This document shows, in pieces, positions 38,692 through 45,035 of a DNA stretch of 64,000 nt. A model generated the notes under the pieces. The model saw only the letters and a program-made list of their open reading frames with translations, made no database searches and had not been told where the DNA came from. The position numbers and the translations under genes are program-made. The stretch is taken from NCBI GenBank assembly GCA_965248055.1, contig CBDFIJ010000004.1, positions 3,008,001-3,072,000 of the forward strand. Direction: 5' to 3'. Each line of letters opens with the position of its first letter. The first letter of the stretch is position 1. Origin of the DNA: Candidatus Multivoradales bacterium (lineage in GTDB: Bacteria > Acidobacteriota > Thermoanaerobaculia > Multivoradales > JAHEKO01).

Positions 38692-40902
38692 ATGAGCAAA
38701 TTCAATTCGCTACAACTTGTTACCGTTGCGGCTGCGCTTGCGGTATCCGCCGGGTGCGCTACCCACCAGGCTGCGCAATCATCCGAAACTACTAACAACG
38801 CAGAAATGGCAACCATGGAAACTGAAACCGCCGAAGCAGAAGCTGAAATGTCGACCGATACCGGACCGTTGCTGACCGAGTGGAATACTCCGTTCGGTGT
38901 ACCTCCGTTTGATGAAATTAAGAACGAACACTACCTGCCAGCGTTTCGCCAAACCATGGAAGAACAGCAGCAAGAGATCACTGAGATCGTGGCCAAGCCG
39001 GAACCAGCGACCTTTGCCAACACCATTGAAGCACTGGAACGCACTGGCAAGGGGCTGACCAAGGTCGCCAACGTCTTCTACTCGCTCAACTCCGCACACA
39101 CCAACGACGTCATCAAAGAGGTGGCCTCGACGATTGCTCCGGAACTCTCCGCCCACGGCGACGACATTGCCTTCAACAAGCCGCTCTTTGAGCGAGTCAA
39201 GGCGGTCTACGACCAGCGTGAAGATCTTGGGCTGAGTGTTGAGCAGCTACGGCTGTTGGAAGAAACCCACAAGGGGTTCGTGCGCTCCGGCGTCGGCCTG
39301 GATGATGCCGCACAGGCAGAAATGCGCCGCATCAATGGTCAGTTGGCGGAGCTGTCGCAGGAGTTCCAGAATAATCTGCTGGCTGAGACCAACGATTTCT
39401 TCATTCATACGACCGACTCTGCTGCTCTCGGTGACCTGCCCACCAGCTTGGTTGCTCTGGCTGCCGATGAGGCAAAGAAACGCGAGTTCGAGGATGGCTG
39501 GGTGTTCACCATCCAGCGTCCCAGCATCAATCCGTTCCTGCAGTACTCACCCGACCGCGAACTGCGCAAGCAACTGTTCATGGCCTATGCGCTACGCGGC
39601 GACAACGGCAACGACAATGACAACAACCAGGTGCTGGCCACGATGGCCTCACTGCGGGCAGAAAAGGCTGGCATTCTCGGTTACGACAGCCATTCACACT
39701 TCGTGCTCTCGGATGCTATGGCGGAGACCCCGGATCGGGTCTATCAATTGCTCGATCAAGTCTGGGATCCGGCCATCAACGTGGCCAAGAAAGATCGCGG
39801 CGACCTGGAAGCGATGATGCATGCCGACGGCATCGAAGGCGAGTTGCAAGGATGGGACTGGCGCCACTACCAGGAGAAAGTGCGCAAGGCCCGCTACGAT
39901 CTCGACGAAGAGATTCTGCGGCCTTACTTTGAAGTCAACGCGGTGCGCGATGGTGTCTTCACCGTCGCCAACCGTCTCTATGGCCTGACCTTTCACCAGT
40001 TGGACGGCGTCCCGGTGTGGCAGCAGGACCAACAGGTGTTCGAGGTCAAAGAAGCCGACGGAAGTCACGTCGGCATCCTCTACATGGATTTCTTCACCCG
40101 TGACTCCAAACGCGGCGGTGCCTGGATGAACGATCTGCGCGCCCAGTCCAAGCTGGACGGCGACATCAAGCCGATCGTCACCAATAACTTCAACTTCCCA
40201 CCACCAACCGCCGACGGTCCATCACTGCTCTCGTTCACCAACGCCCAGACCTTGTTCCATGAGATGGGCCATGCGTTGCACGGTCTGCTCTCGGACGTCA
40301 CCTATGAATCTCTGTCCGGCACCAACGTGCCGCGCGACTTCGTCGAGTTTCCATCCCAGGTAATGGAGAACTGGATGGCGCATCCTGAGGTGCTCAAGCT
40401 CTACGCCAAGCACTACCAGACCGGTGAAGTGATCCCCGATGAACTGATCGCCAAGATTACCGCCGCTGACAAATTCGGCCAAGGTTTCGCCACCGTCGAA
40501 TACGTCGCCGCGTCCTATCTCGATATGGCTTGGCATACCCTCACCGAGCCTCAGGAATTAGTTCCGGATGAGATCGAAGAGGCGGAAATGGCCCGCATCG
40601 GCTTGATCGACCAGATCATCCCGCGCTACCGCAACACCTACTTTGCCCACATCTTCGCCGGCGGCTACTCCTCCGGTTACTACAGCTACCTGTGGTCCGA
40701 AGTCCTCGACGCTGACGCCTTTGAAGCCTTCAAAGAGACCGACGTATTCAACGCCGAGGTCGCTGCCCGCTACCGCCGCATGCTCTCCAAAGGCGGCTCC
40801 GAGCCGGGTATGGATCTCTACCGTGAATTCCGCGGTCGCGATCCGATTATTGATCCACTGCTAGAGCGGAGAGGGTTGGTGCAGGGCGAAGCTACAGAGT
40901 AG
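38692..40902 (+). CDS. dcp: M3-family peptidyl-dipeptidase (Dcp-like), lipoprotein signal
   Basis: Lipobox SAGC, KRGGAWM, FHEMGHALHG, DFVEFPSQ, GYYSYLWSEVLDAD. Confidence 0.92.
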   Translation: MSKFNSLQLVTVAAALAVSAGCATHQAAQSSETTNNAEMATMETETAEAEAEMSTDTGPLLTEWNTPFGVPPFDEIKNEHYLPAFRQTMEEQQQEITEIVAKPEPATFANTIEALERTGKGLTKVANVFYSLNSAHTNDVIKEVASTIAPELSAHGDDIAFNKPLFERVKAVYDQREDLGLSVEQLRLLEETHKGFVRSGVGLDDAAQAEMRRINGQLAELSQEFQNNLLAETNDFFIHTTDSAALGDLPTSLVALAADEAKKREFEDGWVFTIQRPSINPFLQYSPDRELRKQLFMAYALRGDNGNDNDNNQVLATMASLRAEKAGILGYDSHSHFVLSDAMAETPDRVYQLLDQVWDPAINVAKKDRGDLEAMMHADGIEGELQGWDWRHYQEKVRKARYDLDEEILRPYFEVNAVRDGVFTVANRLYGLTFHQLDGVPVWQQDQQVFEVKEADGSHVGILYMDFFTRDSKRGGAWMNDLRAQSKLDGDIKPIVTNNFNFPPPTADGPSLLSFTNAQTLFHEMGHALHGLLSDVTYESLSGTNVPRDFVEFPSQVMENWMAHPEVLKLYAKHYQTGEVIPDELIAKITAADKFGQGFATVEYVAASYLDMAWHTLTEPQELVPDEIEEAEMARIGLIDQIIPRYRNTYFAHIFAGGYSSGYYSYLWSEVLDADAFEAFKETDVFNAEVAARYRRMLSKGGSEPGMDLYREFRGRDPIIDPLLERRGLVQGEATE

Positions 40903-40926
40903 ACGCGTCTATTCCAGCGCGCTTAG

Positions 40927-40954
40927 AAAGGGAGGGGTTATCCCCTCCCTTTTT
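40927..40954 (+). terminator. Intrinsic terminator after dcp
   Basis: AAAGGGAGGGG-TTAT-CCCCTCCCTTTTT: perfect hairpin plus T-tract, 25 nt after the stop. Confidence 0.8.
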
Positions 40955-40987
40955 CGCGCCCACCACACTTTTTTGTACCGAATTCTT

Positions 40988-41187
40988 TTGCACTTGCTGC
41001 CCTGGAGGCCGGCGCATGCTTTTCGGACTCCAAAGAATGGCATGCGCCTCGGCTTCGCATCGCGCTGGATCATTAGACGGCCTCGCCACATCGTGCCATG
41101 CGCTTGCGAAAGCCTGTCCTGAGCGACCGCTGGGAGTCGAAGGAACGCCTCCCGGGCTGGCAGGTACGGAGTTCCCCCCTCCCAAGA
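40988..41187. repeat. Structured dispersed repeat, copy A (carries a 34-nt insertion at 41111-41144)
   Basis: Aligns by eye with 42528-42694; long outer stem, inner hairpin GGCGCATGC/GCATGCGCC, shared tail CAGGTACGG...CCCCCTCCCAAGA. Confidence 0.75.
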
Positions 41188-41216
41188 GGACAGAACACAC
41201 GGAGGGAGTCTGCTTC

Positions 41217-41330
41217 GGCGGGGACAGTTCAAACACCTCGTCATCCCAACGCCAGCGAGCCTGCCCCGGCGGGGCGTGGGTGGGAGCCGGGGTCATCCCG
41301 GCGGTGGAAGGGCGAGGGGCCAGGATCTCG
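41217..41330. repeat. REP-like palindromic modules
   Basis: 41217-41247 is close to the reverse complement of GGGATGACGAGGTGTTTGAGCTCCCCGCC in the 294-bp array. 41283-41307 GGAGCCGGGGTCATCCCGGCGGTGG is identical to 44865-44889. Confidence 0.75.
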
Positions 41331-41482
41331 TTTGCTGTTGTCACCCTCGCGGCGATTCGCCAGCAAGCTAGTCGTAAACTAAATATTCCGCTGTCTTAGT
41401 CTTGCGGTGGTACCCGACTTGCACCAAGTAACCCCATGCACAATGGCTGGCCCTAGGGTCAGTTACCAAAAAGGGGGCTGTA

Positions 41483-42283
41483 ATGAAGAAAACGCGTACG
41501 TTGATTGCCACTGGATTACTAGGGATTTGTTTCGCGTTACCGTTGGCGGCACAGCAGGCTAGTGAGGAAAGCAAGGTCGAGGAAAACTTGGTCACCCGCC
41601 AGTTTCGGCTGGAGTATATCGGTGCCGAAATGGCGGCGAACGTGCTTCGTGGCATCTTTGCGATGAGAAACATGGCCCCGATTGGTGAGAGCACCGTCGT
41701 CGTATCCGATCAGCTTGTGCGCATTGAACGGGCGGCTGAGGTTCTCGCTATGTTAGACCGTTCTCCGGGTGCATACGCAGCCGAGGTATTGCTTTACCAA
41801 GTTCCCTGGAATCTTGGCGCGGCAGAATTAACTCTTTCAGAGTACCTAGCTGAGCTAGGAAATGGTGGTGTATTGAAAGATAGGCAGACGTTGACCGCGT
41901 TCGGTGGCGAGAATATGTTCTGGGATTCGGGTCACGGCGGTTCGGCGCCTTGTTCTCAAGTCAAGGTCGAGCTCGCGGTTCAATCTTCCGATCCGGAACA
42001 GCTTTCGTTGGGCTACTCGATCCGGGGTGCGAGTGGCTCCAAATTACAGGGATCCACACCTATCGTTTCTGAACAGCAATTGGTTCTCAATGCGGGAGCT
42101 CTTACAGCTTTCTCCGATCAGGCGCGCAAGCTGCAAACAGATGAGGGTTCGCGCAAATCAGGGGATACGGTCGCGAAGAAGGAGAGCCAGGAAGCGCACT
42201 GTTTGGTCGCCGTGACCCTCAGCGTGCTCCAGGATCCCGATCCTGTCGACGAATCCGCTATTGAGCTCAACTGGTCGCGTTGA
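41483..42283 (+). CDS. Secreted hypothetical protein with a secretin-N (NolW)-like domain
   Basis: Signal peptide; TRQFRLEYIGAEMAANVL...STVVVSD..RIERAAEVLAMLDRSP resembles the secretin N repeat. Confidence 0.6.
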   Translation: MKKTRTLIATGLLGICFALPLAAQQASEESKVEENLVTRQFRLEYIGAEMAANVLRGIFAMRNMAPIGESTVVVSDQLVRIERAAEVLAMLDRSPGAYAAEVLLYQVPWNLGAAELTLSEYLAELGNGGVLKDRQTLTAFGGENMFWDSGHGGSAPCSQVKVELAVQSSDPEQLSLGYSIRGASGSKLQGSTPIVSEQQLVLNAGALTAFSDQARKLQTDEGSRKSGDTVAKKESQEAHCLVAVTLSVLQDPDPVDESAIELNWSR

Positions 42284-42417
42284 AGGCAGGGCGGTTCTCC
42301 AGCCGTTCGACGATGTTGCGAGAAACACTGCATCGTTGACGAAGGCGCGTTAGGTCAATGTTTCGACAGGTGCGAACGATTTTTTCGGTGTTAGACGTGC
42401 AACAAACTTGTGATCGT

Positions 42418-42524
42418 GCGCCGGCAGCACAGTGGGATATTGCACCAGCGAGCCTGCCCTGAGCGAGTTCGGCGAGCCGAAGGGGATCTGGGGGTCGAGG
42501 GTTCGAATCCTTCCCGGCGCGCCA
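42418..42524 (+). pseudogene. tRNA-Arg-like gene with the anticodon loop replaced by a REP-like insertion
   Basis: Acceptor GCGCCGG/CCGGCGC, D arm GCAC-AGTGGGATA-TTGC, anticodon stem CCAG/CTGG, variable GGGTC, T arm GAGGG-TTCGAAT-CCTTC, end GCCA. U8 is C and about 37 nt of repeat sits in the anticodon loop. Arg identity is inferred from body similarity only. Confidence 0.75.
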
Positions 42525-42527
42525 TTC

Positions 42528-42694
42528 TTGTACCTGCTGCGCTGGGAGCTGGCGAGCACTTCTCAGAATCCGAAAGTGGGTGCTCGCCTCGGCTTTGCTT
42601 CGCGCCGAATCGATGAAGGCCTATTGACGCCGGTGCTACGCACTTGCAAAGACGCCCCAGCGGCATCAGGTACGGGGGTTTCCCCCTCCCAAGA
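42528..42694. repeat. Structured dispersed repeat, copy B
   Basis: Starts 3 nt after the tRNA-like CCA; outer stem GTACCTG...CAGGTAC, inner hairpin GGCGAGCAC/GTGCTCGCC; homologous to 40988-41187. Confidence 0.75.
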
Positions 42695-42770
42695 TCAAAG
42701 AAGGAACTCGTCGTACGTCCCGTCCTGCGTGAGATGTGGGGTATAAACTATCGACGGAGGTTTGCTAAGA

Positions 42771-43895
42771 ATGACTACACGACTGTCTGCCTTCCCGGTC
42801 TGGATACTGGTGGTATCGCTAGTCGTCAGCGCGCTCCACGCGGAACCTCCCACGGCCCTAGAGAAGATCCTCGACCAAAACCCGCGCACCGATGAGCTCT
42901 ACCGACTCGTCCGCTTGTCGGACCGGGTGGTGTTTGCCAAGTTGGCCTCGAGCGAAGCACGGATTTCGCTATTGGGCGAAGTCGGGCCCGCGCCCGGGGT
43001 TGGTCTTTGGGCCGGCCCCACTTTGAGCATGACCAACACCGCTCTGGCGGCCGAATTGGATACCACTACGCTGACGGAATCCGGGCAGCAACTGCGAGAG
43101 GATCTGATCGATCTCGGGTTCATTCCCGCCGAAGACAAGCTTCAAGTTCTGATCACACTGGTCGATGGCGCGAGGGTGGACCAGATGTTCGATTTTTCAG
43201 ATTGGGAACGATTGGGTGAAAGACAGCGCGAAGAAGACCTCATAACTCAAGGCCACAGTGGGGATCAGGTACTCGAGCGGCGACTCGGGACGCGCTTTGG
43301 CGAGGCCGTGGCCCGGCAAGCCGCGTATGACGCAGACTGGAAATTTGACGACCAGGCAGATGTGATGGCCGGGGAGAGAGCACGGGAAGCCGAACGACAG
43401 CAGTTGATCGCTGGGCGGCGGGCGCGCTTTGTTACCGAAGCAATTCGCGCCCTGTATTGGGTCGATCCAACCTACGAAACCACAATCATTGATTGGCTTG
43501 AGAGCCTTCCACAAGAAGACACCAATCGCCTTGCCCGTCTGCTACAACTTGCGGGTTTCGATCAGATGAGCCCCGAGATCTTGGTGCGCGAGAGCGCGCC
43601 CAACCTGCATCAGCCTCTGGTCCTAAGTGCCCGCCTGTACCAACGCCTGGAGAGCGTTACGGTCGGCGGAGCGAGCAAACGACAACTTGATCCGGAGCGC
43701 TTCGCCAATGCCGAAGTTCTGGCGCAGGCGGAGAGCTTCTACCAGCAGTTCTTTGTTGCCGACCGCAAGGGTAGGTTCGAGTTTGAGCTTGCAGAGGGAG
43801 TTGCGACGTTTGTCGAGACGCAATCAGCTTTGGTCCGTGAGTTGACCGCATCACATCTTGAGGGATTGTTAGGTTCCGGCTGGTTAGAAGACTGA
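42771..43895 (+). CDS. Hypothetical secreted protein
   Basis: RBS GGAGG, signal peptide ending ALHA-E, 374-aa ORF with no motif I recognise. Confidence 0.7.
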   Translation: MTTRLSAFPVWILVVSLVVSALHAEPPTALEKILDQNPRTDELYRLVRLSDRVVFAKLASSEARISLLGEVGPAPGVGLWAGPTLSMTNTALAAELDTTTLTESGQQLREDLIDLGFIPAEDKLQVLITLVDGARVDQMFDFSDWERLGERQREEDLITQGHSGDQVLERRLGTRFGEAVARQAAYDADWKFDDQADVMAGERAREAERQQLIAGRRARFVTEAIRALYWVDPTYETTIIDWLESLPQEDTNRLARLLQLAGFDQMSPEILVRESAPNLHQPLVLSARLYQRLESVTVGGASKRQLDPERFANAEVLAQAESFYQQFFVADRKGRFEFELAEGVATFVETQSALVRELTASHLEGLLGSGWLED

Positions 43896-43970
43896 TTTGT
43901 TTTTGCACCCGCCGTCCTGAAGACGGTGAGCGCTTCTCGGACTCCGCAGTACGGCGCTCACCTCGCCGGA

Positions 43971-44072
43971 GGGGACACAATACTTTGTTTGTGTCCCCAT
44001 CTCCGCCGAGCGGCGATCTGCGCGCTGAGTCATCCTGAGCGACCGAGCTTTGCGAGGGAGTCGAAGGATCTC
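43971..44072. repeat. Hairpin plus REP-like half element
   Basis: GGGGACACAA..TTGTGTCCCC hairpin (43971-43998). GTCATCCTGAGCG...GGAGTCGAAGGATCTC (44029-44072) matches 44918-44961. Confidence 0.75.
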
Positions 44073-44917: not shown

Positions 44918-45035
44918 GTCATCCTGAGCGGAGCTGCGTAGCAGTGGAGTCGAAGGATCTCGATGCTGGCATATCGAGGTCATTGAAGAATCGAGATCCT
45001 TCGACTCCCTCGAAGATTCAGTCGCTCAGGATGAC
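44918..45035. repeat. Complete inverted REP-like doublet
   Basis: GTCATCCTGAGCG..GGAGTCGAAGGATCTCGAT...ATCGAGATCCTTCGACTCC..CGCTCAGGATGAC forms a long hairpin. Confidence 0.85.

Follow-up and report, generated by a model that had tools for sequence, protein, structure and literature searches.

The 34-nt unit lodged in one copy of a structured repeat (unit A; 41111..41144, + strand) is a real finding. It adds one more case to a repeat type that is already known and does not define a new class of mobile unit. It is probably an atypical, tag-less copy of a hairpin repeat of the Ssn-/REP class, with unit A representing an insertion and a second unit (unit T; 42451..42483, + strand) representing an older event in a tRNA gene. 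Positions given without a prefix refer to the window, that is, the whole 64,000-nt stretch of DNA that was analysed (C4:3008001-3072000 of the 3.4-Mb genome G000). A genome of the same genus (G001) was used for comparison, and L-numbers denote loci pulled from genomes or contigs. Tallies over the 301 genomes of the phylum and the 24 genomes of the family each take in one unpublished genome (G189 and G002, respectively), and none of the claims made here depends on these two. In three small contigs of G000 (C1-C3; 14.8, 16.7 and 28.4 kb), no tRNAs are present and the G+C content is 39-43%, compared to 57% in the chromosome; plasmids, phage or contamination are possible origins.

Unit A is inserted in one copy of a structured repeat

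We confirmed the pair of filled and empty repeat copies on which the original prediction was built, both by the letters themselves and by an alignment of eight copies, one of which is filled. The filled, structured RNA-like copy A (40985..41200, + strand; nhmmer and alignment) reads CTTGCGAA-AGCCTGTCCTGAGCGACCGCTGGGAGTCGAAGGA-ACGCC at 41103-41149, while the empty copy B (42524..42705, + strand), located directly 3' of the CCA of a tRNA-like gene, reads CTTGCAAAGACGCC at 42645-42658. Overall, this host repeat is roughly 175 nt long and is present in G000 in six full copies plus one 5' fragment, and in G001 in two copies (loci L010 and L020). The further copies in G000 were identified with nhmmer and lie at C4:2673775-2673965 (copy C, - strand), C4:3002083-3002265 (copy D), C4:2632915-2633100 (copy E) and C4:2620135-2620315 (copy G), with the 5' fragment F at ~43892-43975 of the window. 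The extra 34 nt were found in copy A alone, and seven of the eight aligned copies (six from G000, two from G001) are without them, including the nearest paralogue of A, copy C, which matches copy A at E 2e-25 (nhmmer) with 86% identity. In G001, copy A is absent at the syntenic place, from the M3 peptidase gene to the tRNA-like gene. As one copy in eight is filled, the nearest paralogue is empty and G001 has no copy A, the filled state of copy A is the derived one, and copy B is very unlikely to be a deletion.

A consensus fold of the eight host-repeat copies (RNAalifold) comprised 43 pairs, 18 of which show changes on both sides (compensatory), and placed the site of unit A in a 3-4-nt unpaired linker joining two predicted helices. 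Unit A is a DNA-level insertion into this linker in one copy of the structured repeat. In agreement with what had been stated earlier, no target-site duplication was visible at unit A, nor at unit T, when the junction letters were inspected. The empty host copies read RRRGAYG or RRRGACGC at the insertion site; because of the latter reading, the AG at 41111-41112 may be host sequence, in which case the left border would be at 41113 and the insert would be 32 nt long. A reading as a MITE was rejected because neither unit has a target-site duplication and the whole unit is one hairpin. In the contigs of four runs from one sample, copy A was found in the filled state alone, with no empty allele and no joints; contigs drop rare variants. 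The independent mobility that was proposed for the unit is inferred, no empty allele having appeared in the contigs of the four runs.

In the predicted fold, a long helix closes the host repeat, which also contains a 5' hairpin and inner helices. The repeat has no Rfam match, and within the window it is located upstream of ORFs whose products have signal-peptide-like starts. We consider it a candidate for an undescribed structured RNA or leader of this lineage. Rfam searches of the window at the gathering score, and of 40800-42850 at E up to 10, returned nothing relevant, and a promoter and terminator scan of 40850-42800 remained at shuffle level.

Similarity assigns both units to a genome-wide hairpin family

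The genome search suggested along with the original prediction was performed. The pattern AGCCTGYCCTGAGCG-N(3-30)-GAGYCGAAGG matched the window twice (41111-41143 and 42451-42483) and matched none of 100 window shuffles; as a head-plus-core pattern (AGCCTGYCCTGAGCG-N-GAGYCGAAGG), these two window sites were the sole matches in the 3.4-Mb genome. The second match bears out the statement that the unit recurs in a tRNA insert. Contrary to what had been supposed, the unit does not stand alone as an element bounded by ends of its own: its core belongs to a hairpin family (family 1, GTCATCCTGAGCG-variable hairpin-GTCGAAGGATCTC) with about 45 copies in G000, almost all of them extragenic, and the true ends of this family are (T)GTCAT... 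and ...GGATCTC. A relaxed pattern (CCTGAGCGA..CGAAGG) gave 26 matches in G000, 20 of which are preceded by GTCAT and followed by ATCTC, and a two-anchor search gave 53 candidates, including 38 canonical copies (at most one mismatch in each 13-nt end).

The canonical copies are 35-49 nt long without favouring multiples of three (17/11/10) and are distributed 19/19 between the strands. The base preceding GTC varies (TGTC in 21 copies, GGTC in 8, AGTC in 6 and CGTC in 3), the stem starts with AT..AT, and the stem is bipartite; its purine-rich internal loop is fixed, while the inner hairpin varies. Of the 38 copies, 3 lie wholly within open frames of at least 200 codons, compared to 1707 of 2000 random 44-mers. 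Ten pairs of neighbouring canonical copies are at most 600 nt apart, and inverted pairs are frequent. Within the window, the best HMM match (E 1.8e-11) is a canonical copy just 3' of host-repeat fragment F (44029..44072, + strand), and the two-anchor search identified an inverted pair (44918..44961, + strand, and 44993..45035, - strand) whose members are 32 nt apart. Single-sequence folds of the units and of canonical copies were not more stable than those of shuffles (z -0.33 to +0.83). Hammerhead, K-turn and loop-E readings of the internal loop were dropped by eye, as the conserved letters misfit the respective consensus sequences.

A copy of a second hairpin family, with ends as in family 1 (GTCATCCCGGCGG...GGATCTC), is located at 41292..41329 (+ strand). 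Long tandem arrays with a period of about 170-220 nt at C4:1044643-1047321 and C4:2865988-2866950 are built of this second family (GTCATCCCGGCGG...GCCGGGATCTC) and inverted partners. Inner hairpins of tandem arrays (L186, L193) are without the GTCAT head. In G001 locus L010 (reverse strand, ~545-585), a canonical family 1 copy directly follows the stop codon of the M3 peptidase gene, while the same 3' site in G000 (window ~40903) has no hairpin copy, which is another filled/empty difference between the species.

Both units match the core CCTGAGCG-hairpin-GAGYCGAAGG exactly and have an outer stem of the form YCCU/AGGR. The T/C and A/G differences between them that the original prediction pointed out are the two sides of one base pair (UCCU/AGGA compared to CCCU/AGGG) and are compensatory. 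An HMM of family 1 was built from the 38 canonical copies, with units A and T left out. It gave 44 genome matches at E up to 1e-3, and unit A was the next in line (rank 45; 41117-41144, 19.2 bits, genome-wide E 0.0047); its alignment covers model positions 5-39 and so leaves out the family ends. Unit T scored 6.9 bits, which is not significant, and was outside the genome-wide list. The core of unit A shares 93% identity with a canonical copy at C4:2129099-2129126, and unit T shares 89% identity with a family copy at C4:900657-900689. Since each core is closer to another copy in the genome, the two cores derive from different sub-lineages. Judged by sequence similarity, both units can be assigned to family 1, strongly in the case of unit A and through a chain of similarities in the case of unit T.

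Unit A reads CCTGT...AGGAACGCC and unit T reads CCTGC...AGGGGATCTGG. The GTC(AT) head, the ATCTC tail and the C after the palindrome are absent from both units, and because of the missing tag and tail, the ends proposed in the original prediction are not those of the family. Beyond the core, the units share just a 5-7-nt head, (AG)CCTGY. Copies with the same unusual head or tail also occur in unrelated contexts, namely at G001 loci L192 and L193, where the heads are GAGCCTGC or GCTTGC and the tails GGATCTGGG. The supposed preference for structured targets, which rests on two cases, is not upheld.

Unit T interrupts a conserved tRNA-Arg(UCG)-derived gene

Unit T is located in the former anticodon loop of a 107-nt gene derived from tRNA-Arg(UCG) (42418..42524, + strand), in which the acceptor, D and T arms are kept and the anticodon loop is replaced by the unit. 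Its arms were aligned by eye, one after the other, with those of intact tRNA-Arg(tcg) genes from relatives, which ARAGORN called in five of the eight loci examined. The relatives read CCAGA-CTTCGGA-TCTGG, compared to CCAGC-G-(unit T)-GGA-TCTGG in G000. Homology to the intact tRNA-Arg resumes at 42484, and same-sample contigs of other organisms with an intact gene align from there. ARAGORN reported no tRNA in the window and Rfam missed the gene as well; with introns allowed, ARAGORN yielded only a forced, implausible tRNA-Ala(agc). The gene does not form a cloverleaf with a 7-nt anticodon loop carrying UCG, its loop being replaced, and it is not a decoding tRNA, because removing unit T restores neither the 7-nt loop nor the anticodon. 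A group I tRNA intron was rejected, as the insert has just 33 nt and no Rfam intron matched even at E up to 10.

The tRNA set of G000 (ARAGORN) comprises 48 tRNAs for all amino acids, with acg, ccg, cct and tct for Arg and no tcg. A full-length tRNA-Arg(tcg) copy of at least 89% identity was found in 13 of 24 other genomes of the family, and the same query found none in G000 or G001. With inosine modification, tRNA-Arg(ACG) can read CGA codons, and for this reason the loss of tRNA-Arg(UCG) is tolerated. The same ARAGORN set includes a tRNA-Ala(cgc) of 67 nt (C4:3322643-3322709) beside a normal 76-nt tRNA-Ala(cgc) elsewhere; the former may be a truncated or aberrant gene.

G001 has the same interrupted gene, with a hairpin interior that is 9 nt shorter, followed by the orthologue of host copy B. 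Between the two genomes, 68 of 74 columns of the tRNA body are identical, as are 23 of 33 in unit T (head and tail identical, 9 gap columns) and 138 of 193 in host copy B. The 120 nt upstream and downstream show 69/145 and 69/140 identical columns, respectively, with a mean of 0.49 for unrelated 120-mers, and four-fold degenerate sites of the adjacent M3 peptidase gene differ at 33 of 76 positions. With the tRNA body so similar while the four-fold sites have diverged, the interrupted gene looks to have been under purifying selection since the split of the two species. Unit T is the older event, dating to the ancestor of the genus, and replaced the 5' part of the anticodon loop.

It is possible, and we propose it tentatively, that the hairpin-bearing tRNA-Arg(UCG) gene encodes a new tRNA-shaped RNA, serving as an RNase P/Z processing handle for the structured repeat RNA directly 3' of its CCA or as a tRNA mimic that displays the hairpin. 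In this reading, selection would have retained the three arms (acceptor, D and T) and the hairpin junctions once the loop had been replaced, and a compensatory change in the D-stem relative to the intact genes fits it. A metagenome scan for a hairpin plus a T-arm was too loose and uninformative: 83 of the 121 matches were listed at 40 nt long, those of 61-64 nt were class II tRNAs, and the matches seen were ordinary tRNAs. On one metagenome contig (L224, 151-192), a CCCTGAGCGCAGTCGAAGGG hairpin precedes a T-arm-like AGTTCGAATCC by about 20 nt; this may be a further case of a hairpin within or beside a tRNA-like sequence.

Hairpin copies adjoin small GIY-YIG genes

The core pattern was found in 5 of 41 relatives, G000 included (23 matches in G000, 16 in G003, 8 in G001, 3 in G034 and 1 in G030), while the reversed-pattern control gave 0-1 matches per genome in the 41 genomes. 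Exact 13+13-nt family ends were present in at least 119 stretches of a species-representative genome set from many phyla. Among the stretches listed, Rhodothermales, several candidate-phyla-radiation groups, Gammaproteobacteria, Eggerthellaceae, Clostridia, Acidobacteria, Bacteroidota, Verrucomicrobiota, Chloroflexia, Bdellovibrionales and others are represented; the sequences around the copies are unrelated, and in many cases another copy lies close by in inverted orientation.

A GIY-YIG domain search of G000 gave three matches, one in a 617-aa frame and two in small ORFs, both of which pass the Pfam GIY-YIG cut-off and contain no other domain. The ORF at C4:3096136-3096438 (100 aa) has an inverted copy of the second family 9 nt downstream, and the ORF at ~C4:2160150-2160440 ends inside an inverted family 1 copy, with a forward degenerate family 1 copy upstream (C4:2160064-2160106); both small ORFs in G000 accordingly have an inverted hairpin copy within 0-12 nt downstream. 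A comparison of the GIY-YIG protein with NCBIfam and with solved structures gave no match. Relatives of the protein were found in 48 of the 301 genomes of the phylum. For the 30 best loci by protein similarity, the 150 nt preceding the ORF were compared with the 130 nt following it. In 16 of these 30 loci, the two flanks share an exact inverted repeat of 10 nt or more, compared to 22 of 174 mismatched-locus pairs, and the other 14 loci had none; a forward GTCATYS tag was found upstream in 19 of the 30. The enzyme acting in trans from outside the window, which had been postulated, finds putative candidates in the two small GIY-YIG genes, each adjoining a hairpin copy. Hairpin family 1 brackets Ssn-like genes and behaves like REPs; the position beside such genes applies to the family and not to units A and T.

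Tandem arrays of a ~32-nt unit (GTCATCCCCGTAGCATGGGGATACATCAACAC) are located about 24 kb past the window end at C4:3095830-3096075 and C4:3096600-3096700, on both sides of an Ssn-like gene, and share the GTCATCC head with the hairpin families. A link to RAYT was rejected: none of the 13 Y1_Tnp ORFs in G000 is flanked by family hairpins. GTCATCC words, one to three of them, occur within 2.5 kb of five of the 13 Y1_Tnp matches, but in no case do they flank the match. The 13 places with Y1 transposase matches (e.g., C4:1142467-1142733 and C4:2107097-2107363) represent a multi-copy family, are unrelated in position to the hairpins, and eight of them fall in open frames of about 305-346 aa (range 103-346).

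Comparison with known repeat systems

Rickettsia palindromic elements (RPE) insert in genes, including RNA genes, and in protein genes they are mostly in-frame. Similar to RPE, a small palindromic repeat is tolerated here inside a functional gene; unlike RPE, the host is a tRNA gene with a destroyed decoding loop.

A close parallel concerns the small nucleases. SsnA of Neisseria meningitidis, a 94-aa GIY-YIG protein, binds the CGTCATTCCCGCG..GCGGGAATC hairpin repeat when it is single-stranded DNA and not otherwise, and its cut falls a few nucleotides upstream, with the nucleotides before the palindrome mattering for cutting and the C after the palindrome for binding (Chenal et al. 2025, PMC11893778). 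Ssn homologues across bacteria are flanked by "Ssn-related motifs" (SRM), including an IS-like NTS-ssnA-NTS layout (PMC11893778). The pairing of GIY-YIG genes and hairpins found here matches this published pairing of Ssn nuclease and SRM and is, in that sense, already in print (PMC11893778). Similar to SRM/NTS, the canonical copies form hairpins of 35-49 nt that carry a GTC tag, begin the stem with A-T pairs and have a C following the palindrome; they are scattered over G000 and bracket single-domain GIY-YIG genes of ~95-100 aa as inverted repeats; unlike SRM, the G000 stem is longer and bipartite, and units A and T are without tag and tail (PMC11893778). The degenerate SRM pattern HGTCWY..RNCYNB (PMC11893778) gave 26 matches in G000 compared to 24 in a reversed-sequence control, and matched none of the 38 canonical copies and neither unit A nor unit T.

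Repeats of this kind were classed earlier as CGTC/TGTC-tagged REPs, at a time when the enzyme was not known (Di Nocera et al. 2013, PMC3733652). Like these, the canonical copies carry TGTC (21/38) or CGTC (3/38) tags, AT at the first two stem positions and a short unpaired tail, and they occupy extragenic sites and form head-to-head pairs (PMC3733652). The CGTC/TGTC REPs have 8-9-bp stems and 4-5-nt loops, compared to which the G000 copies are longer, and the portion of that paper compared here gives cases inside protein genes and none inside a tRNA gene (PMC3733652). With REP/REPIN and RAYT (Y1), the family shares short extragenic hairpins, inverted doublets, the lack of a target duplication and a repeat-flanked enzyme gene, while it differs in that the G000 hairpins have no GTAG tag and that the associated enzyme is a GIY-YIG nuclease (PMC3116915, PMC2817692). 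Neither these exact letters nor a REP-type hairpin inside a tRNA gene turned up in our literature searches; the phylum may be listed in the supplementary tables of PMC11893778.

Proposed origin and alternative explanations

The hairpins may spread as single-stranded DNA hairpins, aided by an Ssn-like nuclease and host repair. In G001, the tail of the family, GGATCTGGGGG, resembles the CGGATCTGG(S)GG of intact tRNA-Arg(tcg) genes, and this resemblance may have guided the insertion: the tRNA would have been struck since its own GGATCTGG(G)GG stretch resembles the 3' tail of the repeat (homology-guided capture). Units A and T, which are without GTC tag and tail, would now be inert, and selection would have preserved the broken tRNA gene, probably for a tRNA-shaped RNA that is produced jointly with the structured repeat downstream. 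GIY-YIG nucleases act hydrolytically, and no joining activity is known among them, which counts against the proposed spread. The missing GTC tag and C after the palindrome in both units likewise count against an Ssn-driven explanation, by comparison with the Neisseria system as described in the portion of PMC11893778 used here.

An unlikely alternative in our assessment is that the units are a functional RNA module, with a purine-rich internal loop binding a factor, that was recruited into structured RNAs and is not selfish DNA. The compensatory stem pair between units A and T would suit such a module, and so would the inner stems of family copies, which vary while the loop letters GAGCG/GAGTCGA are fixed; both insertions are located where an extra arm would leave the host helices intact, purifying selection acts on the tRNA-like gene, and unit T has the same head and tail in G000 and G001. 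The distribution of the family argues the other way: it is extragenic, divided 19/19 between the strands, with frequent inverted pairs, its hairpins bracket nuclease genes as inverted repeats, and the unit is present in one of eight host copies. In addition, the G001 unit lost its inner hairpin through a 9-nt deletion, the units have no Rfam match and fold no better than shuffles, and the Ssn protein studied binds single-stranded DNA, not RNA (PMC11893778, in the portion used). Quite unlikely is a local origin of unit A, with the tRNA-borne unit at a distance of 1.3 kb as the source, gene conversion or template switching as the process and the AGCCTGY head as a by-product. This would account for the two units being the sole genome matches to the head-plus-core pattern, 1340 nt apart, and for a third local stretch (41252..41266, + strand; CCAGCGAGCCTGCCC) that repeats 15 nt of the tRNA-unit junction; this 15-mer, which recurs at 42445-42459 within the tRNA-like gene, here stands at the head of a GAGCCTGCCCCGGCGGGG-type repeat and is found twice in the G000 genome. 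However, the cores differ (CCGCTGG and GAGTCG compared to GTTCGGC and GAGCCG), each unit has a closer relative elsewhere in the genome, the G001 copies in unrelated places carry the same head or tail, and the AG of the head in copy A may be host sequence.

The anticodon loop is the usual place for tRNA introns, and the interrupted gene is conserved (68/74) compared to diverged nearby neutral sites (33/76 differ), both of which would agree with the tRNA insert being a short intron that is removed from the RNA, so that the gene yields a working tRNA-Arg. We regard this as very improbable given that removal of 33-34 nt leaves CCAG-CGGGAT-CTGG, with no 7-nt loop, U33 or UCG anticodon, that position 31 is changed from A to C, and that ARAGORN with introns yields nothing beyond the forced tRNA-Ala(agc); moreover, the known bacterial tRNA introns are group I introns of about 200 nt or more. 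A loss of 34 ancestral nt from copy B and the other empty copies is hardly conceivable: nothing beyond the bare filled/empty pair speaks for it, while seven of eight copies in two genomes lack the unit with the linker otherwise conserved (RRRGAYG), and the closest paralogue of copy A is empty.

Implications

The part that may surprise a specialist is the tRNA-Arg(UCG) gene, which is interrupted by a hairpin and yet conserved. Together, the filled/empty site of copy A and the genus-wide tRNA insertion provide concrete junctions for deriving the insertion rule of Ssn-linked hairpins. For annotation, the interrupted tRNA gene carries a warning, as the genus appears to be without tRNA-Arg(UCG) only because the gene is interrupted. 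A tRNA that has lost its anticodon loop and is still 92% identical between the species, while 43% of neighbouring silent sites have changed, suggests that a broken tRNA can persist for another job. If the reading as a tRNA-shaped RNA is true, a selfish DNA hairpin would have been domesticated inside a tRNA scaffold.
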